Shown: positions 46,209 through 63,332 of the stretch, in pieces | Position numbering within the stretch: position 1 is the stretch's first letter | Layout of the letters: every line of letters starts with the position of its first letter | NCBI GenBank assembly: GCA_044070495.1 | Contig: JBIPSI010000019.1 | Location: 44,646 to 108,645, forward strand | Source: Spirulina sp. | GTDB lineage: Bacteria; Cyanobacteriota; Cyanobacteriia; Phormidesmidales; Phormidesmidaceae | Length of the DNA stretch: 64,000 bases | Direction of reading: 5' to 3' | Notes under the pieces: generated by a model | What the model was told of the DNA's origin: nothing | Database searches by the model: none | Seen by the model: the letters and a program-made list of their open reading frames with translations, nothing else | Position numbers and translations under genes: made by a program

Positions 46209-46306
46209 GGGATTAATCCTCCAAGTGCCTATATCTAGTAGGTTTTCGCGTTCCCTATCTCAGTTTCTCAGTCTATCAGACGGTGGGATCAAGGCATAGA
46301 TAATGA

Positions 46307-46987: not shown

Positions 46988-47075
46988 GGGCCTAGGACTG
47001 TGAGAAGTGTTGCGAGATAGTTAGGACTTCGAGATCGTCAGGATTCTGCCCTATCCTACCGAAGGAAGAAGGGGT

Positions 47076-49037
47076 ATGGCGTTAGGGGAGGCCAAGGGCG
47101 TGAGGGGAACCAGTCGATCACTATTCAAGCTGGGGCACGGGCTGATGGTGAGCTGTGCCGTGTTTGGGGCCATTGCCCTGGCCTCCCAGCATCCCTGGAT
47201 TGTGCGTACCGAGGGCTATGCCCAGTCCTTGCTGTGGCGGCTGCGGGGGCCGATTGATCCCCCCGATGATGTGGTGATTTTGGCCATTGATGAATATTCC
47301 CTCAGCCAGGGGGGGACCTACTCGGATAGCCCAGATCGCTATCCCTACCTAGCCCCCCTAGAATCTTGGCCCTGGCAGCGTCAGGTGTATGCGACCGCCA
47401 TTGATCGGCTGATGGAAGCTGGGGCTAGGGCAGTGGCGGTGGATGTGCTCCTGCTGGATCCGAGCCTCTATGGCCCAGCGGATGATGCCGCCCTGGAGGC
47501 CAGTTTGACTCGGTGGGGGGATCGGGTGGTGCTGGCGGCCCTCTACGATTCATCGACCACCGACTGGGGCGGGGTGGCCTCTTTGCTGGTACCCAGCCTC
47601 GGTGGGGCGGCACACCAGGGGTTGATCAACGTCGCTCCCGACAGCGATGGCCAGCTTCGACTTGCGCCGGAAGTGGTGCTGTCCGAATTGCGGCAAGTTC
47701 ACGGTTTTGTCGATACCCTACCCGCCTTTGCCACGGCAACCCTCCAGGCCGCTGGCGATCCCGATCCCCACTGGCCCAGCCAGCGGCTATTTTTCTATGG
47801 GCCGAGGGGCACCATTCCCACCCTGCCCTTTGCCCACGTGATCGAGCCTGAAAATTGGAATCGCTATCGCCACCAGTTTGCCGACAAGATTGTGATCATT
47901 GGCCCCACCGCCCCTTCCCTCCAGGATCTCCATCGCATAGCCTTTGATAACGCCATCCCAGGGCCGGAGGTTCACGCCCAAACTGTGGCGGCTATGCTAG
48001 AAGGCCGTACTCTCAACCCGCTGCTGGCTAATTCCCTCGTCCAGGGACTCGTAACGGCCCTACTGATCGGCGGCCTTGGCCTGGGGCTGGGGTATCGGTT
48101 CAACCAGCCTTTGCCCCGGCTCCTGGGGTTTGGCACGGCCATTACCCTCTGGGGGGCCACCGCCTACCTGCTGATGATGGGGCCACCGGGACGCCTGATT
48201 CCCCTGGCAATTCCGGTGACCTGCCTGGGCATGGGAGGCTTGGCCTACATTGCCACGGGGGCGATTGGGGATCGCCTAGAGGAACAACGCCTGCGCCGCA
48301 CCCTAGAGCGCTATGTATCCCCAGCGGTGGCCAACGAAATTCTGGGCCAACCGGAGGATTTCACCAGCCTGGGGGTGGGCCAACAAATGCAGGCGGCGGT
48401 GCTGTTTTCGGATATTCGGGGCTTTAGCCGTCTGTCTTACCAGCTCGGAGCCGAACAAACCGTTCGGATGCTCAATACCTACCTCACCGATATGGTGGCC
48501 GCCATTCTGGCCGAACGGGGCACCATCGATAAGTTTATTGGCGATGCAGTGATGGCGGAGTTTGGCGCACCCATCTCCCTGGGGGCCAAGCAGGATGCCC
48601 TGGGTGCCGTCCGGGCCGCCCTGGGAATGCGAGCCGCCTTGGCCACCCTGCGCCAACGGTTGCAGGCGGAGGGGTTGCCGCCTCTGTTTAATGGCATCGG
48701 CGTTAGCTATGGCGACCTGGTGGTGGGCAATGTGGGGTCGCCGCAACGGCTGGAATATACGGCCATTGGCGACACCGTGAATGTGGCCAGCCGCATAGAA
48801 GGGCTGACCAAACTGGTGGGCACCGACCTGCTGATTACCCAACCCCTCTACGACCTGGTGCAAGACGACATCATCGCCGTAGACCACGGGCCGCACTTCG
48901 TCGCCGGACGGGAAAAGGAAGCGGTTCAGGTCTATGGCGTAATTAGTCTGCGCGGCGAATCCGACGCCCTCTATCAACAGGTGCAAAGGGATCTCCAAGC
49001 CCATCTGGCCGCCACTCCCAAAGGCCCACCGAAGTAA
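47076..49037 (+). CDS. CHASE2-domain adenylate/guanylate cyclase
   Basis: [58 protein letters not shown]. Confidence 0.93.
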
Positions 49038-49193
49038 AGCGGGGCTAGCCGATCTGAGGATAGGGAAGGCTAGGGTCGCCGATTGGCTCTGGTGAAGGGC
49101 TACCCCCATGGCTTTACCTAAACAGCAGGGGAGCGGCAGGGGCCAGATTTCGCTCGGTACAATGGAAGGGTTAGGGCAGAGGAACTTCTGGTT

Positions 49194-49757
49194 ATGGTGA
49201 CCACCAAACTCTCGCTGGCGGATTATCTGAGCCTAGACCATGGCCCAGAGGGTCGCTGTGAATTTGTGGATGGAGACATTCTTGAAATGCCGCCGGAAAG
49301 TGAAGACAAGGTCATCGTGGGCAGTTATTTGGCCACGCAGTTATTGAGTGTGCTTTCCTTTGACCAAGTGCGCCAGGGCACAACGGAATTAGTCATTTCT
49401 GGGCGGGTACGCATTCCTGATGTCATGGTGTTGGGGGAAGACTTAGTCGCGGCCCTGGCAGGTCGCCGGAGAAGCACCATTACGGAGGAAATGCCGCCGC
49501 CGTTGCTGGTGGTGGAGGTGGTGTCGCCAGGGAAAATTAATGAAGACCGAGACTATCGCTACAAGCGCTCGGAGTATGCGGCACGGGGGATTCCTGAATA
49601 TTGGATTGTTGACCCGGAACGGGAAAAGGTAACGGTGCTGACCCTGGTGGATGGCTGGTATGAGCCGGAGGAATTGGGGCCAGAGGGGGTGTTGGAATCG
49701 CCCCAGGTGCCGGGGTTTTCGGTGTCGGTGGCGAGGCTGTTATCGCCGAGGGGTTAG
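49194..49757 (+). CDS. Uma2 family putative endonuclease
   Basis: [42 protein letters not shown]. Confidence 0.9.
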
Positions 49758-49803
49758 GTCATAAAATTTGGGAAGATGTACCTTTCGCATGGAGCGCTGA
49801 ATC

Positions 49804-50139
49804 ATGGCCAAATCGTCGCCGTCTTTGGTGGGCACCTGGCACATCTATGAGATGGATCTTTGGGATGAGGACTATTTCAATATGGAGGTACAGGCTTACA
49901 TTACGGTGAACCCCCAGGCCACGGGGGAGTTTCAGTTTGGCTTGGTGTCTGGGGGTTTGGATGGAGAGTTTGGCCGCCAGGAGGGCCAAGAACGGCTAGA
50001 TTTTACCTGGGACGGAAATGACGAGTGTGATGAAGCCTCTGGGAGCGGCTGGCTGGTGCTGAAGTCGGCGGATGAGGCGGAGGGGAGTATTAAGCTCCAT
50101 GGGGGAGATCGGTCTGGGTTTTTGGCACGGAGGGCGTGA
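49804..50139 (+). CDS. Conserved hypothetical protein (acidic, beta-rich)
   Basis: 111-aa ORF, GTWHIYEMDLWD...GEFQFG...FTWDGNDE; GTGA overlap with the next ORF. Confidence 0.7.
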   Translation: MAKSSPSLVGTWHIYEMDLWDEDYFNMEVQAYITVNPQATGEFQFGLVSGGLDGEFGRQEGQERLDFTWDGNDECDEASGSGWLVLKSADEAEGSIKLHGGDRSGFLARRA

Positions 50140-50372
50140 GGATGCGGAGGGCGTTTGAGATTGTGACGCGGGATGAGGCGGCGGCGGAACAGTTTATGGC
50201 GGCGGTGCAGGCGGAGGATGTGAGCATTGAGGACTGGAGCGGGGTTTGGCCAGGGCCGGAGTATGAGAGCTATGTGTGTAGCTTTGGCCTGACGCCCCAC
50301 AGCAAGCGCCAGCTAGACCGTACGGCGGATGCCATGGGGGTTTCGTTGATTTATGTAAAGATTGAGCCTTAG
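50136..50372 (+). CDS. Hypothetical protein
   Basis: 78-aa ORF coupled to the previous one. Confidence 0.55.
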   Translation: MRMRRAFEIVTRDEAAAEQFMAAVQAEDVSIEDWSGVWPGPEYESYVCSFGLTPHSKRQLDRTADAMGVSLIYVKIEP

Positions 50373-50520
50373 GCGAGTTGGCTGGGTAACCTAGGCATAG
50401 CACTTTACGGAACCGGGATAACGGTCTGTAAAGAAGGTTGGTTTGGTCGTTAAGGTCTCTGCCAAGGTTTTGGAACTTGGCTACACTGCAAAAAACAACG
50501 GCTAGGACAAGGGAGCCTGC

Positions 50521-52647
50521 GTGAGCCTGAAGGATCTTCGCATTCAGGACGAGTATCGCAGTAGCGAGTGCAATATCGTCAAGGATTTTTACATTCCGTG
50601 CCTGGAGCAGGCCACGGGCTATAGTCGGGCGGTGGGCTATTTTTCTAGCTCATCGATGGCCTGTGTAGCCCAGGGTCTAACGGCGTTTATTCGCTCTGGG
50701 GGACGGATGCGTTTGATCACTTCTCCCCAGCTATCTGAGGAAGATGTGCAGGCGATTGAGCAGGGGCTACAGCAGCGGGAACAGGTGGTTGAGGCGGCGT
50801 TGCGGCGAGAACTGGAGGCTGAGCTACCCCAGGTGATCCAAGACCGTTTGGCGGCGTTGGCCTGGTTGCTGGGCCAAGGGCTTTTGGAGATTAAGCTGGC
50901 GGTGCCTAGGACGTTGCGACGGCGGGGGATTTATCACGAAAAGCTGGGGGTGTTTACGGACGCAGACGGTCATGTGGTGGCGTTTACCGGGTCGGCCAAT
51001 GAAAGCGCCAGTGCGTTGATTGATAATTTTGAATGCCTGGATGTCTTTAGTTCTTGGGATGAGGGGGTGCGGCGGCGGGCGTTGCAGAAGGCCCAAAATT
51101 TTGAGGCGTTGTGGAATGACCAGACCAAGAATGTAGAGGTGATGGCGTTTCCTGATGCGGTGGCGAGGTCGTTACTTCAGTTTTGCCCAACCCAAGCCCC
51201 AACCCAAGAACCTAGGGTTTCTGCGCTAGACGAACACTATGACCTGGAAAACTCGCCACCGGAGTCTCCGCCCCCTGGAATTCCGGCAAGCCCATTTTGG
51301 CTGACACTTCGACCCTACCAGCAGCAGGCCATTGATAACTGGTTTGCTAACAAGGGACGCGGCACCCTGAAGATGGCCACGGGCAGCGGCAAAACCATTA
51401 CAGCTCTAGCAGCGGTGGCACAGCTCTACGAAAAATGCAGAGCTAACAACAAATCCTTGCAGACGTTGCTGATTGTTTGTCCCTATCGCCATCTGGTCAC
51501 GCAATGGGCAACGGAATGCCGCAAGTTTAACCTCGCCCCTATCCTCGCCTTTGACCGGGCCGCCACCTGGCAGGAAACCTTACAAAATCAGTTGGTCGCC
51601 CTATCGGGAGGACGACAACCCTTCGTCACCGTTATCACCACCAATGCCACCCTACGGCAGAATTCGCTGCAATCCCAGCTCTCGTTTTTGCCTCAGCTAG
51701 CGATGATCATTGGTGACGAGGCCCACAACCTAGGGGCCGAGAACCTAGCGGCCTGTCTTCCAGACAATATCCCCCTGCGGCTGGCCCTATCGGCGACCCC
51801 AGAGCGCCACTTTGATCAAGCGGGGACAGAGCGCATCTTCGACTACTTTGGCCCCGTGCTAGAGCCGGAATTTACCCTGCGAGACGCCCTCCAGGCTGGG
51901 GCGCTGGTGCAGTATACCTACACCCCCATGCTGATTGAACTCACCCCGGAGGAGGTGGAGCGCTACGCCGAACTGACCGCAGCCATTGGTCGGGCCATGG
52001 GTATCGGGGGCCGGGACGACAACACGGCCCTAGAACGCCTGCTGTTTGAGCGGGCGAGGCTGATTTGCACCGCCGAAAACAAGCTCACCCAGCTTAGGGC
52101 GTTGATGGAAACGCGGCTCCACAGCGACCACACGCTGTTCTACTGTGGCGATGGCTCAGTGGAAGATGACACCAGCGAGGAAAGCCGCCGCCAACTAGAG
52201 GCGGTGGCCGACTTGCTCAACTATCGCCTGGGCTATAAGGTCGAACCCTACGTGGCCGAAACCAGCCTGACTGAACGGGATGACCTGCGCTACGCCTTTG
52301 AAAAAGGGCATATTAAGGGACTAGTGGCCATTCGGTGTTTGGATGAGGGCATGGATATTCCCGCTATCCAAACCGCTGTGATTTTGGCCAGCAGCAGCAA
52401 CCCGCGCCAGTTCATCCAGCGGCGGGGGCGAATTTTGCGGCCCTCCCCCAATAAACACCAGGCCGAACTGTTTGACATGCTGGTGATACCGCCAGACCTA
52501 GGTGGGGAATATTGGCCCATAGAGCAGCGGATCTTGCGCGGCGAACTGGCCCGCTTTGTGGAATTTGCCGACCTGGCGCTGAATGCCGGGGAAGCCCGTA
52601 AAATTCTGTATCCCCTGCAAGAACGGTACGACTTGTTAGATTTGTGA
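50521..52647 (+). CDS. PLD(HKD)-like domain + SF2 DEAH helicase; 'DNA phosphorothioation system restriction enzyme' type
   Basis: IYHEKLG...FTGSANES; LRPYQ, MATGSGKT, GDEAHN, LSATP, CLDEGMDIP, QRRGRILR. Confidence 0.88.
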   Translation: MSLKDLRIQDEYRSSECNIVKDFYIPCLEQATGYSRAVGYFSSSSMACVAQGLTAFIRSGGRMRLITSPQLSEEDVQAIEQGLQQREQVVEAALRRELEAELPQVIQDRLAALAWLLGQGLLEIKLAVPRTLRRRGIYHEKLGVFTDADGHVVAFTGSANESASALIDNFECLDVFSSWDEGVRRRALQKAQNFEALWNDQTKNVEVMAFPDAVARSLLQFCPTQAPTQEPRVSALDEHYDLENSPPESPPPGIPASPFWLTLRPYQQQAIDNWFANKGRGTLKMATGSGKTITALAAVAQLYEKCRANNKSLQTLLIVCPYRHLVTQWATECRKFNLAPILAFDRAATWQETLQNQLVALSGGRQPFVTVITTNATLRQNSLQSQLSFLPQLAMIIGDEAHNLGAENLAACLPDNIPLRLALSATPERHFDQAGTERIFDYFGPVLEPEFTLRDALQAGALVQYTYTPMLIELTPEEVERYAELTAAIGRAMGIGGRDDNTALERLLFERARLICTAENKLTQLRALMETRLHSDHTLFYCGDGSVEDDTSEESRRQLEAVADLLNYRLGYKVEPYVAETSLTERDDLRYAFEKGHIKGLVAIRCLDEGMDIPAIQTAVILASSSNPRQFIQRRGRILRPSPNKHQAELFDMLVIPPDLGGEYWPIEQRILRGELARFVEFADLALNAGEARKILYPLQERYDLLDL

Positions 52648-52832
52648 TTGATCCCATGACCTCTCCCCCCAACCCCAGCCAGGAAGACATCGAAGCGCCC
52701 ATCACCACGGCTCCCCCAGAAGTTGAGCGGATCATTCGGGAGGTGATTCGGCTGGAGAAGGCCAATTTGTCGAGTGATCGCCCCCGCATTCGGGCCGATG
52801 TGCTCAAGATCATCAAGGACACGATTAAATGA
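52644..52832 (+). CDS. Small helical protein coupled between the helicase and the SMC-like ATPase
   Basis: 62 aa; GTGA overlap with the helicase stop and ATGA overlap with the ATPase start. Confidence 0.7.
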   Translation: MIDPMTSPPNPSQEDIEAPITTAPPEVERIIREVIRLEKANLSSDRPRIRADVLKIIKDTIK

Positions 52833-54880
52833 AGTTGCTATCGCTAAGGCTGTTTAATTTTCGTCAGTTCTGGGGTGAGGTACACCTCGATTTGGCTCAC
52901 CAAAATAGCCACAATGTCACGGTCATCCACGGCAACAATGGGGCGGGCAAAACCACCCTGCTGAATGGCTTTACCTGGGCACTCTACAACCAGCGCAGCC
53001 CTGCCTTTGCCCCTGGCCCTTTGGTGAATAATCGCGCCCTGGGGGAGGTGCCCGTGGGTAGCTTAGTGGAAGGCTGGGTGGAGGTGCTGTTTGAGCACAG
53101 CGGCAAGGAATACCAGGTGCGGCGTTCCTGCGTGGCTCAGAAAGATCCATCTGGGCAAATTGTGGAAGAACCCGGCAGCTTGCAGCTTAAGATCAACGGC
53201 ACGCTGATTACCGAAAAGGACGACATCGAAGATGCCATCGGCAGCGTGTTGCCCAGCAGTTTGCACCGCTACTTTTTCTTTGATGGGGAGCGAATCGAGC
53301 AGATTGTAAAGTCTGAGAACCGGGCGGATATGGCAACGGCCATTAAGACCCTCTTGAGTGTGGAAATGCTGGAGCGGGGCATCAACCACCTGGACTATGC
53401 CCGCAAGCAGCTTGAAAAGGAACTCAGCGCCATTGGCGACACCGAAACCAAGCGGCTGATGGCCGAAAAGAACCGCCGAGAGGAAGAAAAAGCCCAAAAG
53501 GAAACCCGCCGCGAAGCCATTGTGCAAGATTTGCTGGATCAGGAAGACCTGAAGCAGCGCTACAGCGCCCAACTGCGCGATCTAGATCAGGTGAAGGGGA
53601 TTCAGCAGCGGCGCGACGACCTGCAAAGCCAAATGGAAGACCTAGAGCAGCAGTTGGGCCGCAATGAAGACCGTCTGCGGCGGACGATTTCGTCGCGGGG
53701 CTACATGGTGTTTTTAGGCGATACCATTGCCCAATTCAAAGATCTCGCCGCCGACCTGCGCCGCAAGGGAGAACTGCCCGCTGGCATTAAGCGCCAGTTT
53801 GTGCAGGATTTGCTGGATCAAGAAGCCTGTATTTGCGGTGCCCCCCTCACCACGGGCACGGCCAACCGTCGGGAGGTAGAAACCTGGCTGGGCAAGGGGG
53901 GCTTGCAGGATGTGGAGGAGGCCGTGATTAAAATGAGCGGCGAGGTGGAAAGCCTGGAGCGGCAAATCCCGGAATTTTGGGATGAAATTGATCAGGAACA
54001 GGCCAGTATCGAAAATCTGCGGGCTCGGATTAGCAAATTGCAAGACCAAATTAGCGACATCCGCACCCAGCTCAAGGGCAATGAGGATGTAAATGTGCAG
54101 GGCATTGAGCGGCGGCTGGAAGAAACGGAGCAGGCCATTACTGCTCGCCACCGGGAAGATGCGGTGCTGAAGGATGAGATCAAGCGCCTAGAGGAGGCTA
54201 TCGCCGAGGTGGATAAGCAGATCAAGGCCCACGAGGCGAAGGATCAGGAGCAGGCGCGGGTGAAGCGGCAGATCGCAGCGGCCCAGGATGCCATTGCCCG
54301 CCTGAATGAGGTGAAGCACCGGGTAGACCTGAAGTTTCGGGCGGTGCTGGAGGAGAAGGTGCGGGAGATCTTTCGGCGCATTTCCTTTACGCCCTACCTG
54401 CCCCAACTCACCGAAAACTACGAGCTACGGCTGATTGACCCCAACCTAGAGGGCGAGGCCACGGTGGCCGCTTCTACGGGGCAAAACCAGATTCTCAGTC
54501 TGGCCTTTATTGGCAGCGTAATTGACCGGGTACGGGCCTGGAGCAAAAAGCATTCCGCCATTGGGCTAGATGGTGGTGGCTTCCCGATTGTGATGGATTC
54601 GCCCTTTGGTAGCCTCGATTCGGGCAACCGCAGCAACATTGCCAATGCCATTACCGAGCTGTCGGATCAGTTGGTGGTGATGGTGAGCAAAACCCAGTGG
54701 CTAAATGAGGTGGAGCGGGAAATGGAACCCTCCATCGGGGCGGAATATGTGTTGGTTTACCACACGGCCAAGGAGGATGCCGGCCTGGAGGATATGGAGC
54801 GCTATGGTCGCCGCTACCCACTGGTGAAGCGCAGCCCCAATACCTTTACCTGGACGGAGGTGGTGCGGGTGGAGCAGTAG
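52829..54880 (+). CDS. SMC/Rad50-like ABC ATPase with a CxC hook (DndD paralog)
   Basis: GNNGAGKTT, YFFFDGE, coiled coil with central CICG, ASTGQ signature, VMDSPFGSLD. Confidence 0.88.
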   Translation: MKLLSLRLFNFRQFWGEVHLDLAHQNSHNVTVIHGNNGAGKTTLLNGFTWALYNQRSPAFAPGPLVNNRALGEVPVGSLVEGWVEVLFEHSGKEYQVRRSCVAQKDPSGQIVEEPGSLQLKINGTLITEKDDIEDAIGSVLPSSLHRYFFFDGERIEQIVKSENRADMATAIKTLLSVEMLERGINHLDYARKQLEKELSAIGDTETKRLMAEKNRREEEKAQKETRREAIVQDLLDQEDLKQRYSAQLRDLDQVKGIQQRRDDLQSQMEDLEQQLGRNEDRLRRTISSRGYMVFLGDTIAQFKDLAADLRRKGELPAGIKRQFVQDLLDQEACICGAPLTTGTANRREVETWLGKGGLQDVEEAVIKMSGEVESLERQIPEFWDEIDQEQASIENLRARISKLQDQISDIRTQLKGNEDVNVQGIERRLEETEQAITARHREDAVLKDEIKRLEEAIAEVDKQIKAHEAKDQEQARVKRQIAAAQDAIARLNEVKHRVDLKFRAVLEEKVREIFRRISFTPYLPQLTENYELRLIDPNLEGEATVAASTGQNQILSLAFIGSVIDRVRAWSKKHSAIGLDGGGFPIVMDSPFGSLDSGNRSNIANAITELSDQLVVMVSKTQWLNEVEREMEPSIGAEYVLVYHTAKEDAGLEDMERYGRRYPLVKRSPNTFTWTEVVRVEQ

Positions 54881-54925
54881 TGGGGTGAATAGGATAAGTA
54901 CAATGGGGAAAACTGCTGATGGACA

Positions 54926-55597
54926 ATGGGGAACGCTATGGTTAGCACGGCACCACAACCCATCGTTACCGATGAATGGGTACCCGCCTCGTGGGTGGAG
55001 TATATGGCGCGGCTAGAATCCGTGGTGCCGCAGGAGGCCCGCTGCTATTTTGATGCCGATTGGATGAGGGTAGAAATGTCGCCCCTGGGTGCGCTCCACG
55101 GACGGGAAAACTCGATTGTTTCGACGCTGGTGGTGCTGTATGCCACGCTGAAGGGTCTGCGCATGGTGGAGCTGACCAACACCACGTTTCGCAAGACGGG
55201 GCTGCAAGAGGCTCAGCCTGATATTGCCTTTTATGTGGGGCAGGGGTTTGATCTGCCGCCACGGGACAACCGACCGATTGATGTGTTGACCCACGGTGCG
55301 CCTCAGTTGGTGATAGAAATTGCCTCGACGACGCTCAATGATGATCTGGGCAAGAAGCGGCTGCTCTATGAACGGCTGGGCGCGGCTGAATATTGGGTGG
55401 TGGATGTGCAGGCGGCCCAGGTGATTGCCTTCGAGATTGCGGATCGCCGCAGTGGGCAAATTACGGAGTCCCAGGTATTGCCCGGTTTGGCGATGACGAC
55501 GCTGGAAATGGCGCTGGAGCGTTCGCAGCATGAGGATGATGCCACCATCACGCGCTGGCTGTTGGAGTTGTTTAGCCACGGCGCACAGGAAGACTAA
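54926..55597 (+). CDS. Uma2 family putative endonuclease
   Basis: AQPDIAFY, PQLVIEIAST, DDLGKKRLLYERLGAAEYWVVDV; start may be 54938. Confidence 0.88.
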   Translation: MGNAMVSTAPQPIVTDEWVPASWVEYMARLESVVPQEARCYFDADWMRVEMSPLGALHGRENSIVSTLVVLYATLKGLRMVELTNTTFRKTGLQEAQPDIAFYVGQGFDLPPRDNRPIDVLTHGAPQLVIEIASTTLNDDLGKKRLLYERLGAAEYWVVDVQAAQVIAFEIADRRSGQITESQVLPGLAMTTLEMALERSQHEDDATITRWLLELFSHGAQED

Positions 55598-55676
55598 ATG
55601 ATCTCGACTGCCTGAGTTCTAGAAGCTTCTGGCGGAATGCTAAGACCAGACAACGAAGAATTGATGGGGAAACAAA

Positions 55677-56126
55677 ATGGCAGATATACGAATTAAGGTT
55701 GCGAAGGATAAGGCGAAGCTGGTAAAGGCGCTACGATCTGGCGAGGGTTCGACCGGGCCGTTTCAGACTTATGCAGATGTAGTGGCTTTTGGTGCAGCTT
55801 TTGGTTTTAGCAAGAGGAAGCGAGTTCCTTTTGATCAAATCTCACGCGGAAATCCTGATCCAATACCAGCCGATCAGTTCAAAAACAGATCACTTATAGA
55901 CTTAATAGCTGTAGCAGAAACTCATGATCCTAATATTCTGAGTAGTATTGACGAGAAGCTTCAGGAAAAGGCAACAATCTTCGAAGAATACGCAAATGGA
56001 GGCTTTGAAATCTTGGAGTCTTACATATCTGGAGTTATTGATGTATCTAAACAAATATTACTACTTGTAAAATCTGGCGAAGTTAAGATTGACTCAGAAG
56101 ACCTTGATGTTTTAAATTTTCTTTAA
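55677..56126 (+). CDS. DNA phosphorothioation-associated protein 4-like
   Basis: RIKVAKDKAKLVKAL...GPFQTYADVVAFGAAFG...IFEEYANGGFEIL; dnd context. Confidence 0.75.
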   Translation: MADIRIKVAKDKAKLVKALRSGEGSTGPFQTYADVVAFGAAFGFSKRKRVPFDQISRGNPDPIPADQFKNRSLIDLIAVAETHDPNILSSIDEKLQEKATIFEEYANGGFEILESYISGVIDVSKQILLLVKSGEVKIDSEDLDVLNFL

Positions 56127-56154
56127 AGCAATCTAAGAAATAAATTAGATAAAC

Positions 56155-56676
56155 TTGAGAGTTCACCAAATACCAAGTCAGCTAGAAATACTTTCGTACT
56201 ACTCTAAGAGATTTCAGAGAATTCGAGTAGATCGTGCTCATGGTATTGCACCTCATAAGCCATTGTTATTGCTCTCAGTTATCGAAATGATCTCTCATAA
56301 GGAGATTCAGGAGAACAAGATCTACTTGTCAAGTGAACTAATCCAGAAGTTCCTTAAGTATTGGAGCTATTTAGGCTCAGAATCCCATCATCCTGATATT
56401 TCGCGGCCATACTTCCATATGAGAAGCGGAAAATTTTGGCATCTCATGGCAAATCCAGGTTACGAAAATGTCATTTCTTCTAAAGTGAAATTAAAAACTT
56501 TCTTTGAGGTTAAACGAAGCATTGAATATGCTTATCTTGACGAGGATTTATTTGATCTTATGAATATTAGTAAATACAGAGAGAGTTTATTATCTGTTCT
56601 GGTAGGCCAGTGGTTTCCTGGCAGATTAGACGAGGTTATGAGTATTGCAGAAACCAATCTTTTTAGCGAAGAATAA
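56155..56676 (+). CDS. Stand-alone sulfur-binding-domain (SBD)-like protein
   Basis: APHKPLLLLSVI...RPYFHMRS.KFWHL...YAYLDEDLF; no nuclease domain; AT-rich. Confidence 0.65.
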   Translation: MRVHQIPSQLEILSYYSKRFQRIRVDRAHGIAPHKPLLLLSVIEMISHKEIQENKIYLSSELIQKFLKYWSYLGSESHHPDISRPYFHMRSGKFWHLMANPGYENVISSKVKLKTFFEVKRSIEYAYLDEDLFDLMNISKYRESLLSVLVGQWFPGRLDEVMSIAETNLFSEE

Positions 56677-56699
56677 TTGCGACAGGTTGAATCAGCTTT

Positions 56700-57671
56700 A
56701 TGGAAAAGAATCTTGCTTACTATGCAAGTAAACTTAGAGGGCTTCGAGTTAATACTAACAAAGGAGTTACACCATATCAACCGCTATTGCTTTTGGCAGT
56801 TATGGAACTGGTCGGACAGCAATATATCTCAGAAAACAAGATATACCTAACTCCAGAATTAATTTCAATATTTGTGAAATATAGAAGTCAACTAAGCCCG
56901 GCACATTATCAAGCTGATTTAGCGCAACCCTTTTTCTTCATGAGTAAAATAAATGAACCTTTTTGGCACTTAAAGCCAAAGTTGGGCCAGGAAGCTGTCT
57001 TAAATTCTGGAACAAGACTTAACACAATTCCTTTACTAAGAAGAAATATTGAATATGCGTATTTAGATGTAGAGTTATTTGGTTATCTTCAAGCTCCTAT
57101 ATCCAGAAATTCTTTAATATCAGTTTTGGTAGAAAAATGGTTCTCAGATCAGCCTAGGCGAATTGAAAAACTCATGGGTGTTAACCCTTTTCAAAAATTT
57201 TCATACTCACAATCTGAGGAGCATCGTCAGTTACCTCTTGTTAGTGAGCTAGATGCAGTAAAGCCCTATGAGGCAATAGAAACAGTACGAGATGCTACTT
57301 TTAGAAAAAATATAGTGAAGCTGTACGATAATAGGTGTGCATTTTGCCAATTAAGAATCATTGCAGGTGATGAAACTAACATTGTTGATGGAGCGCATAT
57401 TAAACCGTTCTCAAAATTCAAAGATGATAGCTACACAAATGGCATTTCTCTCTGTAAAAACCATCATTGGGCTTTTGATCATGGGTGGTTTAGCCTTGAT
57501 CAGGAATATCGAATACTAATTCGAGAGAATTGGATTAGTGAAAATGCACCTTCAAATATTAAAGCGATGAGTGAGTATCATCTTGAGAGTATTTTCTTGC
57601 CTCATGATGAAGAATTTTTGCCTGATCAAAATGCCTTAGCTTGGCATCGTGAGAACTGGCATATTGCATAG
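56700..57671 (+). CDS. SBD-like + HNH endonuclease (modification-dependent restriction type)
   Basis: TPYQPLLLLAV...QPFF...FWHL...YAYLD; RDATFR...YDNRCAFC...DGAHIKPF...NGISLCKNHHWAFDHG. Confidence 0.82.
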   Translation: MEKNLAYYASKLRGLRVNTNKGVTPYQPLLLLAVMELVGQQYISENKIYLTPELISIFVKYRSQLSPAHYQADLAQPFFFMSKINEPFWHLKPKLGQEAVLNSGTRLNTIPLLRRNIEYAYLDVELFGYLQAPISRNSLISVLVEKWFSDQPRRIEKLMGVNPFQKFSYSQSEEHRQLPLVSELDAVKPYEAIETVRDATFRKNIVKLYDNRCAFCQLRIIAGDETNIVDGAHIKPFSKFKDDSYTNGISLCKNHHWAFDHGWFSLDQEYRILIRENWISENAPSNIKAMSEYHLESIFLPHDEEFLPDQNALAWHRENWHIA

Positions 57672-57899
57672 TCAAGTTTCATTGCCTAAGTACAAATCAG
57701 CAAAAGTCTTTGCCGCTTCAGGGTTCAACGTTTTTAGTGCCCTAACAATTTCAACCACCGTTTCCGCTGTTGGGTCGCGCTTCTCATTCACCCAGCGGTA
57801 AACATTATTGCGTTCCACATCCATCGCCACCGCCAAGGCAAACTGGCTGATGCTGTAATCCTCTAGAACCTGTTTCAGCGCTTGTCCTGCTTTTCCCAT
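57672..57899 (-). CDS. XRE-family helix-turn-helix transcriptional regulator
   Basis: LKQVLEDYSISQFALAVAMDVERNNVYRWVNEKRDP. Confidence 0.85.
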   Translation of the reverse strand: MGKAGQALKQVLEDYSISQFALAVAMDVERNNVYRWVNEKRDPTAETVVEIVRALKTLNPEAAKTFADLYLGNET

Positions 57900-57936
57900 G
57901 CGTCCATGGTTTCAGAGAATCACCCATCTAGACACA

Positions 57937-58002
57937 TCCTAGTGGTTGACAGTCAACCTTTAGGCAGGCTAGACTGCATCACATCGTCCTAGTGGTTGAC
58001 AG
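57937..58002. promoter_or_regulatory. Putative operator/promoter between the divergent XRE gene and its partner
   Basis: 16-bp direct repeat TCCTAGTGGTTGACAG at 57937-57952 and 57987-58002; palindrome GGTTGAC-A-GTCAACC at 57944-57958; contains TTGACA. Confidence 0.65.
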
Positions 58003-58005
58003 ATT

Positions 58006-58299
58006 ATGCAAACCCCCACCGCCCGCTACAGCACCCGCCTCACCAGTCCCGACCCCGTCCACCTAGAACTCACCCTCAAACTCCACACCTACCCCCACCC
58101 CGACCGCGAACCCGTTAAAATTCTCATCATCGGCAGTAAACCCGCCGTTAGCTCCATCGTCGTGGCCCTACATCAGCTTGGCTTTGCCGAAATCTTTGAA
58201 TGGACGGACTTCCTCAGCGCCCCCAATGCCGATAGACCGTTGCAGTTTCAGCCCTATGAGGTCATGAAAGCTCTCATAAAGTATTTACCTAAAAATTAA
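58006..58299 (+). CDS. Hypothetical protein divergent from the XRE regulator
   Basis: 97-aa ORF, ILIIGS...LHQLGFAEIFEW. Confidence 0.65.
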   Translation: MQTPTARYSTRLTSPDPVHLELTLKLHTYPHPDREPVKILIIGSKPAVSSIVVALHQLGFAEIFEWTDFLSAPNADRPLQFQPYEVMKALIKYLPKN

Positions 58300-58312
58300 T
58301 CATGAAAGCTAA

Positions 58313-58603
58313 ATCAGGAGGTTTTCCGGTGACGGGAAAATTTACAGGAACGTTATCAGAGTGGTTGATATTTCTAAAATGTCTACCAGAGGTGTTGTAG
58401 ATGTCATCGTACTAGGTTGGAATCCTAACATTTCCATAGAACTATCACTAGCATTGGTTCGTGAGTGGATCTCTGATTTCGAGCCTACAGAAGGTTGCCG
58501 CCTGATTGCAAAAGTAAATATTAGTGCTGAGAAACTAGAAGATTTGTATCTTACTGATTTTGAGAGAGCGATTGAACCGGAAGAAATTGATAAATTTAGA
58601 TGA
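58313..58603 (+). pseudogene. Probable 3' fragment of an unidentified gene
   Basis: AT-rich frame open from 58313 (YRNVIRVVDI...VIVLGWNP...AKVNISAEKLEDLYLTDFE) with no convincing start; abuts the dndC-like remnant. Confidence 0.4.
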
Positions 58604-58976
58604 CTCTCTTTCTGCCATCTACCACGAAATCACTGGCGAAAAATTCCACGATCCCCGTGCCACCGCCGACACCACCACCCTCAGCCCCGACGAATGGGCC
58701 ATCCTAGAAACCCTCTGCAACGACGACCCCATGTATCTCGAACTCGTCGCCAAACTCCTCGACACCGAACGCAAATATCAAACCATGAGCCGCCGCACCG
58801 GAATCTACAAAGCCCTCCAAACCTGCTTTGAAACCAGCGCCCTCGCCAAAGCCCCCGCCATCCAACGCGCCGAAACCATCCGTACCCTCAAACAAGCCGA
58901 AGAAAACGGCGACATCGATACCTTTCAAAATGCTTGGGCCAACCTGAAGTTTGGGCAAAGGGGAGAAAGAACGTGA
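58596..58976 (+). pseudogene. dndC: C-terminal remnant of the DNA phosphorothioation sulfurtransferase DndC
   Basis: DDSLSAIYHEITGEKFHDPR...DEWAILETLC...LELVAKLLDTERKYQTMSRRTGIY...CFETS resembles cyanobacterial DndC C-termini as recalled; lies upstream of dndD; no PAPS-reductase domain. Confidence 0.65.
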
Positions 58977-59024
58977 GGTGGTGGGATAGCTACAATAAAA
59001 CCAACCTCGCTAGGCAAGGCATCC

Positions 59025-59225
59025 ATGTTGATTCAGAAAATCGTGCAAGAACTGCAAGGCATCCCCGAAGACAAGCTAGAAGAACTCTTCGACCTCATCC
59101 ACTACTTCCGTTTGGGCCTAGCCAACGAGGCATCCCAACCCCGCAGCCCCGGTCTTCTCCCCGGACAACTCAGCGATACCTTCTTTGACCCCCTCCCAGA
59201 AGAGGAACTTCAACAGTGGGAATAA
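59025..59225 (+). CDS. Antitoxin (DUF2281/VapB-like)
   Basis: IPEDKLEELFDLIHYFR...PGLLPG..SDTFFDPLPEEEL; overlaps the PIN gene. Confidence 0.75.
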   Translation: MLIQKIVQELQGIPEDKLEELFDLIHYFRLGLANEASQPRSPGLLPGQLSDTFFDPLPEEELQQWE

Positions 59226-59611
59226 CCTACCTACTCGATACCCACATTTTGCTGTGGTGGATCTTCAACGATTCAAAGCTAGACGAGACGTGCCGCACCA
59301 TTATCGCCAACCCTAGCCATCGCATCCTCGTCAGCAGCGCCTCGGCCTGGGAAATTGCCACCAAACATCGCATTGGCAAATTACCAGAGGCTAAAACCCT
59401 AGTCGCTACCTATTCAGAGACTCTGAACCGCGCTAATTTTGAAGAACTTGCCATCACCGCCAAACATGCCCTAAGAGCCGGAGGGCTGCCCATCGCCCAT
59501 CGCGACCCCTTTGATCGTATGCTGATGGCCCAAGCAGAACTAGAAAATATCCCTATCATCACCTACGATCCAGCCTTCCAGACTGGTTTCATTCAAGTGA
59601 TTCCCAGGTAG
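59216..59611 (+). CDS. vapC: VapC family PIN-domain toxin
   Basis: YLLDTHILLW, SASAWEIATK, HRDPFDRMLMAQA, ITYD. Confidence 0.9.
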   Translation: MGITYLLDTHILLWWIFNDSKLDETCRTIIANPSHRILVSSASAWEIATKHRIGKLPEAKTLVATYSETLNRANFEELAITAKHALRAGGLPIAHRDPFDRMLMAQAELENIPIITYDPAFQTGFIQVIPR

Positions 59612-59631
59612 TAGGGTGGGCACTGCCCACC
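59611..59631 (+). repeat. REP-like palindrome
   Basis: GTAGGGTGGGCACTGCCCACC at the vapC stop. Confidence 0.85.
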
Positions 59632-59727
59632 ACCTAGCTAGGAAAGTCCTCCCTGTTGATTGCCCTCCCCAAAGAGGAAGCGTGTAGAACCTTGTTACGG
59701 TAGATAAGTAGACTTGAGGTGTAAGCC

Positions 59728-59994
59728 ATGACATTACAAGAACTACAACAACAGATGACCCAGCTAACGGTGCAGGATCGCCTGCAACTCGTGCAAATTT
59801 TAATTGCCTCGATTCAACAAGACACCCAAGACTTTCAAGCAGCCAACCCTAATCAACCCCAGGATGAGACTACCCTTGACGCAGACTTAGTCAACCTCCA
59901 TCCTTGGACAAAAAGCTTCATCGGTATTCTGCAACAACCCCTCGATGATAACAAAGAGACTTACATTGACTATCTAGAGGAGAAATACGCTTGA
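59728..59994 (+). CDS. Putative antitoxin
   Basis: 88 aa ending YIDYLEEKY; TTGA overlap with the following PIN gene. Confidence 0.7.
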   Translation: MTLQELQQQMTQLTVQDRLQLVQILIASIQQDTQDFQAANPNQPQDETTLDADLVNLHPWTKSFIGILQQPLDDNKETYIDYLEEKYA

Positions 59995-60413
59995 AAAAAG
60001 TATTATTTGACAGCGATGTTTTGCTAGATGTTCTACTGAATCGCCATCCCTTCATAATAGACTCGGCCCAGGCATTGAATGTTGTTGCAACCGAAAAGGT
60101 AAAAGGATATCTCTCTGGGCACGCCGTTACTAACCTTTACTACATTATGCGTCGCCAGCTTAATAGCAACGTAGCCCATGAAAAGTTAAGTCAATTGCTG
60201 CAACGCATTCAGGTAGCTAGTGTAACGGATAGCGTGATTCGAGCCGCATTACAAAATTCAATGACTGATTTTGAAGATGCCGTCACTAGCGAAGCAGCTC
60301 ATGCCACCCAGATAGACCTGATCGTAACTCGAAATATCTCAGACTTTGAGAAGTCTCCTACCCCTGCTGTTCTGCCAGGTAAGCTAGTTGAAATATTGTC
60401 AAATGAAGTCTGA
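59991..60413 (+). CDS. PIN-domain toxin
   Basis: VLFDSDVLLD, DFEDAV, IVTRNISDF. Confidence 0.88.
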   Translation: MKKVLFDSDVLLDVLLNRHPFIIDSAQALNVVATEKVKGYLSGHAVTNLYYIMRRQLNSNVAHEKLSQLLQRIQVASVTDSVIRAALQNSMTDFEDAVTSEAAHATQIDLIVTRNISDFEKSPTPAVLPGKLVEILSNEV

Positions 60414-60486
60414 TTCTCTGGCAATGAAACCTATCGGTTAGAATGTCAGACCAGTGAAATAGCTACAATGGGAAAGAGCAAAGAGG

Positions 60487-60678
60487 ATGGCAATCCGCAT
60501 GGAAATACGCGATCACCAAATCCTGAAGGAGTTTTCTGCCAACGTGCGCCAGCAATTTCCTGATGCACAAATTTGGGCCTTTGGCTCACGGGCAAGGGGT
60601 AATGCTCAGTTTGAGTCTAGCCCTTATAAGGCCAGTCCTCTGGTTCACAGCATCCTTGCAGAAGGCATTGCCGCATGA
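60487..60678 (+). pseudogene. Minimal nucleotidyltransferase (MNT) with an internal deletion
   Basis: IWAFGSRARG is present but the DxD motif and core are missing; ends SPLVHSILAEGIAA; 63 aa. Confidence 0.6.
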
Positions 60679-61052
60679 GTCAGCCTATCAACCAGCCATC
60701 AGCTAATTTAGCGACTCTACCCGCCATTCGCGAAATCATGGATCGGTCTGCTAAAATTGCTGAGATTTGCCAGCATAACCAAGTTGCTCGCCTAGAACTC
60801 TTTGGTTCTGCCGTCACCACAGCCTTCGACCCTGCTACCAGCGACCTAGATTTTTTGGTAGAGTTTTCTACCGACATTCCCGAAGGTGCATCGGAACGCT
60901 TTTTTGGACTCAAACAAGGTCTGTCCGAAATTTTAGGCCGTAGCATTGACCTAATTGAAGTAAACACCATTCAAAATCCTTACTTTCTTCGAGCCATTTC
61001 TAATAACCGATTAACCATCTATGGAAACCGAAATCCAGAAGTATCTGTATGA
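60675..61052 (+). CDS. MNT nucleotidyltransferase antitoxin (MntA-like)
   Basis: LELFGSAV...SDLDFLVEF...GRSIDL. Confidence 0.85.
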   Translation: MSQPINQPSANLATLPAIREIMDRSAKIAEICQHNQVARLELFGSAVTTAFDPATSDLDFLVEFSTDIPEGASERFFGLKQGLSEILGRSIDLIEVNTIQNPYFLRAISNNRLTIYGNRNPEVSV

Positions 61053-61365
61053 CATTCAAAAATCCTGTGAGTTTATCGGTGAATTTACAGATGGCCAAGA
61101 TTTTGAAGGTTATCGAAATAATCGCCTCCTAAAATCTGCCGTAGAGCGTCAGTTTATCACCATTGGTGAAGCATTGAATCAAGCGATTAGGCGTAATCCA
61201 GACCTAGTTTCATATATTTCTAATACCCGTAAGATCATTGATTTCCGTAACCTTCTGACCCATCAATATGGTGCTGTTTCAGATGCCGTTGTTTGGGATA
61301 TTATCCAAACTAACCTACCTAAACTTATGGATGAAGTGACTCAACTCTTGGGTGCAGCATTATGA
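61021..61365 (+). CDS. HEPN/DUF86 (HepT-like) RNase toxin
   Basis: AVERQFITIGEA, FRNLLTHQY (RxxxxH), VWDII. Confidence 0.88.
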   Translation: METEIQKYLYDIQKSCEFIGEFTDGQDFEGYRNNRLLKSAVERQFITIGEALNQAIRRNPDLVSYISNTRKIIDFRNLLTHQYGAVSDAVVWDIIQTNLPKLMDEVTQLLGAAL

Positions 61366-63332
61366 TCTTCCTCGAACTCACCCTAGAAAACGTTGGTCCC
61401 TACCACGGTCGCCATACCCTCAACCTGCGCCCCCAAGACGGTCGCCCCATCATCCTCATCGGTGGGCTAAATGGCGGTGGCAAAACCACCCTGATGGATG
61501 CCCTACGCCTCGCCCTCTACGGCCAACGCGCCCACATTGACCGCCGTCGCAACCTAGCCTATGCCGACTTTTTGGCCCAGTGCATCAACAACCAGGCCGC
61601 CCCCGAATCCAGCGCCGCCGTCGAACTAACCTTTGAGCGTGTGATCTACATCAGCGGCATCGAAAAGCTGGGGCAAGTGCGGGTACGGCGCACCTGGCAA
61701 CGAGGCACAAAAGACACTCTTACCATCGAGCTAGACGGCTGGCCCAACGAATACCTCACCCAAAACTGGGATGAGCAGGTCGAAGATTGGCTACCCCTGG
61801 GGCTTTCTAACCTATTTTTGTTTGATGGCGAACAGGTTAAAGCTTTGGCCGAGCAAGACACCCCACCCCCCAGCGTGGTCAGCGCCATTCGGGCCGTGTT
61901 GGGCCTAGAACTAGCGGATCGCCTTGCCAACGACCTGGCGGTTTTGGTCAGCCGCAAACGGGCCGAACTCGGCGACACCGCCGCCCAGCAACAGGTCGAT
62001 AGCCTGCGCCACCAGATCACCCAGGTCGATCTCGATTTAGCCTCGGAAGCCAACCTCCTCGAACAGCACGAAGCCAACCTGAAAGCCGCCGAAACGGCCC
62101 TCAGCGAGGCTGAAGACCGCTTTTTTGCCGGGGGCGGGCACATCACCGAACAGGCCGAACCCCTTCAGCAGCAAGTCAAAACCTGGCGCACTGAGATCAA
62201 AATTCAAACCCAAGCCCTCCATGACCTAGCGGCCTCAGCCTTGCCCTTGGCCATGGTTCAGAATTTGCTGATGGCCGGAGCCGCCCAGGGGCAACGGGAA
62301 CAAGCCCAGCAAAAAGCCGACATTGCCCGCGAAGCCCTCCTTGACCACGACCAGCGCCTCTTAGATCTGCTGGGCCAGCTTAAGCTCAAACCAACCCAGC
62401 AGCAAAAAATCCAGGCGTTTATCCAGCAAGAAACCCAAAGCCTCAGCCCCATTGCCAGCGCTGAACCCTGGCTGGCAGCCTCCGACGACAGCTTGGCTCA
62501 GCTCAGCCATATGCTTCAGCACCAGATCGCCACCGAGCAACACCTCACCCGCACCCACATCAACACCCTGCAACGGCTTAACGACGACATCGATGCCCAA
62601 GAAGCCAAGCTTGCCAAGGCAGCCTCCGCCGAAGATTACGAAGCCCTCAAGTCGGCCCGTAGTGCGGCCAAAACCCATTTACAAGAATGCCAGATGACCC
62701 TAGAAATCCATCGTCGCCGCTATGGTGAGTTAGAACGGCAGCGGCAAACCCTCCAGAAAAGCCTGAGCCGCCACGGCAACGACGCCATCGCCGAAAGCCA
62801 GACCCACATTTTGCTAGAAACCGCCCCCAGGGTGCAGGCCACCCTCACCGCCTTCCAGGAAAAATTGACCGAGAAAAAACTAGCCACCCTAGAAACCCAA
62901 GTCACCCAATACTTCAAACTGCTGCTGCACAAGGCCAGCCTGGTCAGCCAGGTGATGATTGATCCCACCACCTTTCGGCTTGATCTCTACGACACCGAAG
63001 GCTCCCCGCTCCCCATTCAACGCCTCTCTGCCGGAGAAAAGCAGCTTCTTGCTATTGCCTTCCTCTGGGGCTTAGCCAGTACCTCCGGGAAGCAACTTCC
63101 GGTGGCCATCGATACCCCCCTCGGACGGCTCGACTCCGAACACCGCAACCACCTAGTCGATCGCTACTTTCCCCAAGCCAGCCACCAGGTCATCCTGCTC
63201 TCTACCGATACCGAAATTCGCGCCGAAGAAGTGGAGCGATTGCGAGAGGCAGAGGCCATTGCCCGTGAGTATTTGCTGGAGTACGATCCAAAGCAGCGGC
63301 AGACTGCCGTGGTATCGGGGTATTTCTGGTAA
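61362..63332 (+). CDS. dndD: DNA sulfur modification protein DndD
   Basis: GGLNGGGKTT, LFLFDGEQ, LSAGEKQLLAIAFLWGL, IDTPLGRLDSEHR, SHQVILLSTDTEI, terminal GYFW. Confidence 0.92.
   Translation: MIFLELTLENVGPYHGRHTLNLRPQDGRPIILIGGLNGGGKTTLMDALRLALYGQRAHIDRRRNLAYADFLAQCINNQAAPESSAAVELTFERVIYISGIEKLGQVRVRRTWQRGTKDTLTIELDGWPNEYLTQNWDEQVEDWLPLGLSNLFLFDGEQVKALAEQDTPPPSVVSAIRAVLGLELADRLANDLAVLVSRKRAELGDTAAQQQVDSLRHQITQVDLDLASEANLLEQHEANLKAAETALSEAEDRFFAGGGHITEQAEPLQQQVKTWRTEIKIQTQALHDLAASALPLAMVQNLLMAGAAQGQREQAQQKADIAREALLDHDQRLLDLLGQLKLKPTQQQKIQAFIQQETQSLSPIASAEPWLAASDDSLAQLSHMLQHQIATEQHLTRTHINTLQRLNDDIDAQEAKLAKAASAEDYEALKSARSAAKTHLQECQMTLEIHRRRYGELERQRQTLQKSLSRHGNDAIAESQTHILLETAPRVQATLTAFQEKLTEKKLATLETQVTQYFKLLLHKASLVSQVMIDPTTFRLDLYDTEGSPLPIQRLSAGEKQLLAIAFLWGLASTSGKQLPVAIDTPLGRLDSEHRNHLVDRYFPQASHQVILLSTDTEIRAEEVERLREAEAIAREYLLEYDPKQRQTAVVSGYFW

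Follow-up and report, generated by a model that had tools for sequence, protein, structure and literature searches.

Four genes of a Spirulina sp. genome (GenBank assembly GCA_044070495.1) very probably constitute a cyanobacterial PbeABCD module, also called a CxC ABC-ATPase / DndE-cognate system, lying head-to-tail with a dnd phosphorothioate (PT) cluster. They were analysed within a stretch of 64,000 nucleotides (nt) from contig JBIPSI010000019.1 (positions 44,646 to 108,645 of the forward strand; hereafter the window), in which the interval from 50.5 to 56.1 kb contains five co-directional open reading frames (ORFs) on the + strand, namely pbeA, pbeB, pbeC, a Uma2-family gene and pbeD. A preliminary description of this DNA had proposed a candidate defence module; its gene positions, its two stop/start overlaps, the motifs that it named and the intervening Uma2 gene were all confirmed in the sequence, and the defence assignment was borne out by a PADLOC scan that matched PbeA and PbeC.

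PbeABCD was reported by Xiong 2019 (PMC6459918), and a 2024 Nucleic Acids Research paper (PMC10853773) gave the module its second name; the statements below draw on parts of both. In the prototype, the dndCDEA-pbeABCD locus of the haloarchaeon Haloterrigena jeotgali cuts plaquing of the virus SNJ1 ~10^4-fold, and every single pbe deletion impairs this protection, with deletion of pbeB or pbeD abolishing it and deletion of pbeA leaving low-level resistance (PMC6459918). PT modification is required, protection being lost once PT is abolished, and viral DNA replication is halted without visible cleavage (PMC6459918). In the later re-annotation, PbeA is an HKD endoDNase joined to an SF2 helicase, PbeC belongs to the CxC-type ABC ATPases and not to the structural maintenance of chromosomes (SMC) proteins, PbeD is the DndE cognate, and PbeB is described as a small protein (PMC10853773). 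The earlier remark that experimental characterisation is lacking was therefore mistaken. The module is already known, the DndD/DndE analogy included, and no new system is opened by the present locus, which largely coincides with a characterised system.

Identity of the module

The first and third genes carried the assignment. PbeA matched the PADLOC PbeA model over residues 3–692 with 808.5 bits (E 1.3e-243), and PbeC matched its own model over the full length with 795.9 bits (E 6.6e-240). The Pfam set found here (PLDc_2, ResIII and Helicase_C in the first gene, AAA_23 in the third) is the same as that given for the prototype, and the prototype locus of H. jeotgali A29 also shares the four genes and their order, adjoins dndCDE, and encodes small proteins of 66 and 152 amino acids (aa) as against 58–62 and 149 aa here (PMC6459918). 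Compared by gene order and domains with that locus, the present one differs in its cyanobacterial host, in the Uma2 gene that splits pbeC from pbeD, in the sulfur-binding domain (SBD) and SBD-HNH genes that follow pbeD, in a truncated canonical dndC and in a cluster without dndA (PMC6459918). The systems described in PMC10853773 likewise combine an HKD-SF2 helicase with a small protein, a CxC ATPase and a DndE cognate and frequently stand in tandem with canonical DndD-DndE; PIN and HEPN RNases as well as stand-alone nucleases, inside or at the edge, belong to their neighbourhoods as they do here.

All motifs of PbeA were intact (HEK at residues 139–141, GSANES at 157–162, GSGKT at 288–292 and DEAH at 399–402), and its closest solved helicases were XPB/Rad25. 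Each PbeA protein holds one HxK...GSxN unit, so that the active site would presumably need a dimer, as we take to be the case in the PLD family. Among same-genus homologues, residues 1–250 (HKD domain and linker; 50521–51270) were 30–60% identical per 50-residue block, as against 76–100% in the helicase part, and the divergence of the HKD region suggests either fast evolution or domain exchange.

PbeC is a Rad50-like hooked ABC ATPase and not the SMC protein that the preliminary description had proposed. The protein carries GNNGAGKT at residues 35–42, CICG at 334–337, ASTGQ at 548–552 and VMDSP at 588–592, and across 29 PbeC sequences the CxC, Walker A, signature and Walker B motifs were all invariant, including C334, C336 and G337 of the hook and S549, T550, G551, N553 and Q554 of the signature. 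The ASTGQ motif, which had been called degenerate, is indeed present but is the normal signature of the family. The coiled coil spans approximately residues 175–500 (~300 residues), with the Zn-hook-type CICG in mid-coil at residue 334 of 683 and no hinge. The DndD model TIGR03185 gave PbeC 136.6 bits, under its cut-off of 245.85, and gave the true DndD of the window 604.5; the two proteins aligned end to end at 23% identity (E 9e-12), DndD lacks a CxC at the position aligned to the PbeC hook, and dndD starts 6.48 kb past the pbeC stop. The ATPase is thus distinct from the downstream dndD, as had been proposed. In one same-genus genome (G012:C2:190457-193267), where the island is present on two contigs (C2 and C31), pbeC is split, residues 1–137 carrying a TGA and residues 127–682 resuming ~730 bp further on, so that decay does occur within the genus.

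The two small subunits

The short second gene is embedded between its neighbours by a GTGA at 52644–52647 (pbeA stop/pbeB start) and an ATGA at 52829–52832 (pbeB stop/pbeC start). All 29 related loci in which both genes are present retain the second of these overlaps, of 4 nt (28 as ATGA, 1 as GTGA). The GTG start of pbeB is uncertain; translation probably begins at the ATG at 52656, 9 nt past the pbeA stop, because most homologues are ~57 aa long and begin at the matching Met. PbeB had no match in the Pfam, PADLOC or NCBIfam libraries, and its membership of PbeABCD rests on synteny (position, size and the 4-nt overlap). Among 23 cyanobacterial sequences the mean column identity was 66%, with 13 invariant columns (P15, I16, A19 and others) and a consensus DDVQEPITxAPPEV followed by heptad-like hydrophobic spacing.

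Structure prediction of the PbeB–PbeC complex, for which a 29-row PbeC alignment and 21 PbeB rows were used, gave an ipSAE (interaction prediction score from aligned errors) of 0.61 (0.59–0.62 in three runs) as against 0.00 for the best of three controls, and so passed a mark that lets through 116 of 157 solved complexes and 2 of 215 mismatched pairs. The runs had at least 95% of contacts in common, with a partner predicted local distance difference test (pLDDT) score of at least 76, and placed PbeB on PbeC residues 179–195 and 477–505, in the head-proximal coiled-coil helices. These predictions support binding of PbeB to the neck of PbeC. In Mre11-Rad50/SbcCD, an ABC ATPase head likewise bears an antiparallel coiled coil with an apical cysteine hook, and a helix pair on the nuclease side grips the coil beside the head. 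The predicted PbeB site presumably corresponds to the site of that helix pair, with the differences that the hook is CxxC there and CxC in PbeC, that the nuclease of PbeA is of the HKD type and fused to a helicase, and that PbeB is encoded by a separate gene. The account of PbeB in PMC10853773 has it rapidly evolving and mostly disordered, whereas in cyanobacteria it is well conserved, predicted helical and predicted to sit on the PbeC neck.

PbeD passed the NCBIfam model TIGR04062 ('DNA phosphorothioation-associated protein 4') with 129.9 bits (cut-off 74.25), and its AlphaFold model, built from a 38-sequence alignment, reached a pLDDT of 78.9 and a predicted template modelling (TM) score of 0.75. 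When this model was compared with 48,161 representatives of the PDB, DndE took ranks 1 and 2 (7x4e with Z 8.7 and a root-mean-square deviation of 3.3 over 109 residues; 5wtu with Z 8.1), and the next structure had Z 6.2. Foldseek placed DndE in 7 of its top 10 rows, with a best E of 0.15, probability 0.94 (4lrv) and a target TM of 0.66. A DndE-like fold of PbeD is supported by these model comparisons; DndE itself is ~40 residues shorter, and its solved structures match the PbeD model. The suggestion that the ATPase and this protein mirror DndD and DndE therefore stood up, and it is already published in PMC10853773.

As a working model, the PbeC–PbeD pair would scan DNA, joining a Rad50/DndD-like hooked ATPase to a DndE-like DNA-binding partner (PMC10853773), and the effector would be PbeA, in which an HKD nuclease and an SF2 translocase are fused. 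PbeB, a ~57-aa helical protein that would be made in step with PbeC, is predicted in silico to clamp both helices of the coiled coil at their exit from the ATPase head. Following the archaeal prototype, PT marks on host DNA would be required, the loss of each gene would impair protection, and viral replication would be stopped. The Uma2 gene in the pbeC–pbeD gap would most likely be an accessory insert, and the lineage would add two PT-reader genes directly behind pbeD.

The value of this locus lies in its details, which bear on PT sensing by Pbe and on the roles of its two small subunits. The lineage adds the Uma2 slot, the SBD readers and a short DndC paralogue to the known module, with PbeB on the PbeC neck as one in-silico lead. 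Three leads can accordingly be named: the predicted PbeB–PbeC neck contact, the PT-reader genes behind pbeD, and the Uma2-holding pbeC–pbeD gap of many cyanobacterial loci.

Phosphorothioate status and competing readings

Several results weigh against the identification of these genes as a PT-dependent PbeABCD module. Two PbeA matches stop just short of their cut-offs (TIGR04095, 581.7 bits against 600; PLDc_2, 23.9 bits against 27), and at E ≤ 0.01 neither PbeB nor PbeD had a PADLOC match. DndE was not found in the PDB by phmmer or by a profile search with PbeD, and hhalign of PbeD (38 sequences) against DndE (28 sequences) returned a probability of 1.3% and no similarity. These three methods show no sequence-level link, and the PbeD–DndE connection therefore rests on a predicted fold with a middling Z. 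The pass of the PbeB–PbeC prediction may, we presume, partly be owed to likeness with solved nuclease–Rad50 neck complexes. The absence of viral DNA cleavage in the prototype fits badly with an intact HKD nuclease (PMC6459918); PMC10853773 argues that DNA cleavage must belong to the Pbe mechanism. On the dnd side, all that is left of canonical dndC is a C-terminal ORF of 138 aa (TIGR03183 positions 367–446 of 447, 55.7 bits), a profile search of the genome detected no full-length DndC, dndB was not found in the genome, and no dedicated dndA scored above the cut-off of 480 (best 437.9; four desulfurase homologues at 324–438 bits). If the module depends on PT as the prototype does, it may consequently have no mark to read.

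That dndC is broken, as the preliminary description stated, is true of the canonical copy only. Equally truncated ORFs occur in three related genomes (G012, G011, G024), and comparison of the remnant with that of G012 gave a ratio of nonsynonymous to synonymous substitution (dN/dS) of 0.20 over 116 codons, with no stops; the C-terminal ORF may be a maintained small gene and not debris. An adjoining contig of the same genome (C5) opens with the 18-nt repeat that ends the window, on the same strand and at 90–97% identity (blastn), and continues with dndE, a third Uma2 gene and a 400-aa DndC-family gene; the same order is found on a single contig in G012. This short DndC paralogue lacks the last ~85 residues of DndC but retains the PP-loop (SGGKDS), the cysteine of RWCT and the cysteine pair of GCxxC. 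It is convergent with dndE in G012, G032 and G018, lies ~1–2.5 kb after dndD on the opposite strand of the same contig in G011, G034 and G003, and occurs both with and without full-length DndC.

An inversion that had split dndC, with the 400-aa gene as the missing N-terminal part, was considered and rejected, since the whole ~400-aa ORF is conserved at 74–93% identity in many relatives; moreover, the 400-aa form co-exists with full-length DndC in G018 and G032, and no inverted repeat joins the two sites. DndD and DndE are intact here, both scoring above their cut-offs. Among 61 related genomes, DndD exceeded its cut-off in 12 and full-length DndC was found in only 4; dndD is interrupted in G018, and G024, G028 and G036 hold fragments only.

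One alternative is that Pbe works here without PT, either alone, as an abortive or suicide system, or paired with a different mark, the dnd set being broken. The canonical dndC, down to its last ~80 profile positions here and equally truncated in three relatives, would fit this, as would the scarcity of full-length DndC among the relatives and the purifying selection on the pbe genes (dN/dS 0.04–0.16 for pbeA, pbeB, pbeC and pbeD against the same-genus G012 and G006, at synonymous distances of 0.5–2.0). So would the occurrence of the module away from dnd genes, which had been anticipated and was confirmed: among 52 loci with at least 9 kb downstream, dndC or dndD lay within 10 kb in 38 and neither did in 14, and 320 of 553 pbeAC are reported as solitary, 155 of them near methyltransferases (PMC6459918). 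A cell-suicide use of the nuclease is also argued for in PMC10853773. Against this stand the short DndC paralogue, whose motifs are kept near dndE/dndD both here and in relatives, the intact DndD and DndE, the two SBD genes after pbeD, which make little sense without PT, and the prototype, in which protection did not outlast the mark (PMC6459918). PT-independence had been hinted at earlier from the intactness of the four pbe genes; they are indeed intact, but the intact-looking short DndC paralogue and the two SBD genes weaken the hint, and we hold this alternative to be possible yet doubtful.

It is improbable that the island is simply decaying, with the pbe genes intact for want of time and with erosion proceeding through the deletion in dndC and the insertion of Uma2 and toxin-antitoxin genes. 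Such decay would account for the deletion itself, for the toxin-antitoxin genes wedged between the dndC remnant and dndD, and for the split pbeC, the interrupted dndD and the fragments in the relatives listed above, but it is countered by the low dN/dS values of the four pbe genes and of Uma2 (0.10–0.12), by motifs that are all intact and by the kept pbeB/pbeC overlap. The combination of a coiled-coil ABC ATPase, a small subunit and a nuclease effector had called Lamassu or Wadjet to mind, and weak NCBIfam SMC/Rad50 matches (E 1e-6 to 1e-17, all far under their cut-offs) point the same way. An SMC-type system of this sort is nevertheless hardly tenable and remains a loose analogy, since Pfam SMC_N gives 27.6 bits under a cut-off of 40, the 25 best of 96 PADLOC matches are all PbeC models followed by DndD models, a CxC hook on a ~300-residue coiled coil replaces the hinge, and PMC10853773 calls PbeC misidentified as SMC, with coiled coils of 800–1000 residues in SMC proteins as against ~400 in this clade.

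Genes added to the module and features of the island

Taking the genes as a PbeABCD module, two genes behind pbeD are putative PT readers. The stand-alone SBD protein matched the solved SBDHga (8h0l) with E 8.1e-22 over residues 10–149, and of the five sulfur-cavity residues described in PMC10602919 it keeps four (H, K, P and H) and has R in place of L75, making it a putative PT binder. In the SBD-HNH protein, the N-terminal half matched SBDHga (E 1.1e-10) and the HNH part matched TagI (E 2.3e-4) and Pfam HNH_2; NF045808 gave 84.4 bits, under its cut-off of 180. Downstream sequence of at least 2 kb was available for 63 PbeD loci; within 1.5 kb of pbeD, 24 of these have an SBD-HNH-like gene, 8 a stand-alone SBD-like gene and 26 either. 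The domain is that of SBDHga and of the SBD-HNH PT-dependent endonucleases of the ScoMcrA/SprMcrA type (PMC10602919), and wHTH(SBD)-SAD-HNH nucleases in Dnd neighbourhoods are already in PMC10853773. The SBD homologues treated in the relevant part of PMC10602919 are fused with HNH, kinase or PD-(D/E)XK domains or with domains of unknown kind, a stand-alone form not being mentioned there, whereas here one of the two is stand-alone and both lie in a Pbe-Dnd island.

The Uma2 gene in the pbeC–pbeD gap occurs at the same site in three same-genus genomes (90–93% identity; dN/dS 0.10–0.12). Loss of a catalytic Asp, and with it inactivity, was rejected for this gene, as the D, E and K columns of the motif, presumably the catalytic ones, are retained in the alignment. 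In a 22.7-kb contig of run X3 (probably DNA, ~92% identical), the 796 bases with Uma2 are absent, and a different sequence of 79 nt links the stop of pbeC with the start of pbeD. For a wider survey, 80 loci were fetched with the PbeD alignment, being the best 80 of 550 confirmed ones; one duplicate was dropped (L034, of L035), leaving 79, and pbeC lay upstream of pbeD in 61, many of them Nostocales and non-independent. Gaps longer than 300 nt held 103 ORFs of at least 100 aa, of which 92 were submitted to Pfam and 11 minus-strand ORFs were left out; six loci with such gaps had no 100-aa ORF and stayed outside this typing (L040, L076, L078, L079, L088, L094). At least one Uma2 gene was present in the gap of 36 of the 61 loci (up to three in some), DUF2887 only in 3 and an MNT/HepT pair only in 3, and the gap was 120 nt or less in 6.

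In our reading, the pbeC–pbeD gap is a permissive site in which small genes of nuclease or toxin type accumulate. With 71 Uma2 matches in the 5.3 Mb of the genome, three copies in the ~16-kb island are beyond chance. Of 401 genomes of the phylum, 93 contain the subtype of the gap gene, often more than once. It is also present in a genome in which no PbeC was found (G051) and at a second site in the source genome; this spread weakened the candidate idea of a Pbe-specific fifth subunit. Uma2 (DUF820) genes have also been described inside the Synechocystis hox operon, beside toxin-antitoxin modules (PMC4963859). The literature consulted on the Uma2 family assigned it no function. In the main text of PMC10853773, the terms 'Uma2', 'DUF820' and 'cyanobacteria' do not occur; a role of the gap Uma2 as a back-up effector, as that paper proposes for stand-alone nucleases, is possible. 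In four Nostoc loci (L058, L065, L067, L086) a Uma2 gene lies between dndC and dndD as well, and in G012 MNT/HepT pairs lie between dndD and dndE, so that several intergenic slots of pbe-dnd islands are occupied by small nuclease- or toxin-type genes.

A more far-reaching reading of the cyanobacterial module, in which all of its parts would have to hold jointly, we consider unlikely. PbeB would be a fixed clamp on the PbeC neck, a counterpart of the Rad50-binding helices of Mre11 that may tether PbeA, and not a disordered decoy; SBD and SBD-HNH would supply PT sensing for Pbe; the pbeC–pbeD gap would be a docking slot for Uma2 PD-(D/E)XK back-up effectors; and the short DndC paralogue, perhaps with the C-terminal dndC ORF, would sustain PT after loss of canonical dndC. 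If true, this would give the large orphan Uma2 family its first function.

The features of the island are collected in Table 1. The pbeC–Uma2 and Uma2–pbeD gaps measure 45 and 79 nt, the SBD gene follows pbeD after 28 nt and the SBD-HNH gene follows after 23 nt more. A terminator scan of the + strand returned three terminator-like sites, none of them in the intergenic gaps of pbeC-Uma2-pbeD, at a frequency no higher than in shuffled sequence; promoter-like sites were likewise not enriched over shuffled sequence. Short contigs of two metatranscriptome runs matched parts of pbeA, pbeC, Uma2, SBD and HNH at 90–100% identity (sampled-word shares 0.05–0.07), and contigs from RNA libraries do not demonstrate transcription. 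No Rfam family was found within 46000–64000, and the island edges lack a usable tRNA.

Table 1. Coordinates of the genes and other features of the pbe-dnd island (window positions; C5, adjoining contig of the same genome)
Feature	Position	Strand	Evidence
Uma2-family gene (PD-(D/E)XK fold), upstream edge of island	49194..49757	+	Pfam Uma2 115 bits; PADLOC PDC-S03 E 3.6e-60
pbeA, HKD/PLD nuclease domain and SF2 (ResIII/XPB-like) helicase, 708 aa	50521..52647	+	PADLOC PbeA
Single HKD motif in pbeA (HEK 50935-50943, GSANES 50989-51006)	50935..51006	+	motif positions
pbeB, small protein, 62 aa (GTG) or 58 aa (ATG at 52656)	52644..52832	+	synteny, conservation
pbeC, CxC (Zn-hook type) ABC ATPase, DndD sister, 683 aa	52829..54880	+	PADLOC PbeC
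CICG hook, mid coiled coil of PbeC	53828..53839	+	residues 334-337
Uma2 nuclease-fold gene between pbeC and pbeD, 223 aa	54926..55597	+	Pfam Uma2 92.5 bits
pbeD, 'dnd-associated protein 4', predicted DndE-like fold, 149 aa	55677..56126	+	TIGR04062, predicted fold
Stand-alone SBD protein, 173 aa	56155..56676	+	match to SBDHga 8h0l
SBD-HNH endonuclease (PT-sensing nuclease type), 323 aa	56700..57671	+	SBDHga and TagI matches; Pfam HNH_2
Cro/C1-type HTH gene, divergent from dnd string	57672..57899	-	Pfam HTH_3
97-aa ORF, precedes dndC in relatives	58006..58299	+	conservation
C-terminal remnant of canonical dndC, 138-aa ORF	58560..58976	+	TIGR03183 positions 367-446
Toxin-antitoxin-type inserts (PIN, PIN_3, MNT/HepT), dndC remnant to dndD	59216..61365	+	Pfam PIN, PIN_3, NTP_transf_2, HepT-like
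dndD	61362..63332	+	TIGR03185 604.5 bits, cut-off 245.85
18-nt tandem repeat at contig end	63842..63998	.	TRF
dndE	C5:84-473		123 bits, cut-off 71.85
Third Uma2 gene	C5:589-1146		
DndC-family gene, 400 aa	C5:1150-2352	-	133-134 bits (cut-off 290), profile positions 16-360

The guanine-plus-cytosine (GC) fraction drops sharply at 55600–57700, to 0.36–0.40 in pbeD (0.40), SBD and SBD-HNH as against 0.57 in pbeA-C and Uma2. Replacement of pbeD by a foreign low-GC copy was considered and rejected: the pbeD genes of relatives, the other Pbe lineage included, are likewise low (0.38–0.47), so that the drop says little about recent transfer. In the toxin-antitoxin-type inserts, matches to the NCBIfam MntA and HepT models stayed below the cut-offs.

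In many cyanobacterial loci the HTH gene and the 97-aa ORF are kept immediately ahead of dndC or of what remains of it. The ORF, which had no match in NCBIfam or Pfam, is 79–83% identical in G012, G032 and G018, and the two genes may act as a local regulatory pair in place of DndB. Between dndD and dndE, tandem repeats of 17/18 nt that are G-/C-rich (63347–63400, 63842–63998 and C5:1–83) flank a minus-strand gene for a four-helix bundle of the 23S rRNA-intervening-sequence protein family, and the assembly break falls in the 18-nt repeat. Just upstream of the island, at 47076–49037, lies a gene for a CHASE2-sensor nucleotide cyclase that has PADLOC Pycsar-cyclase matches (best E 1.5e-25) and is probably an ordinary signalling cyclase.

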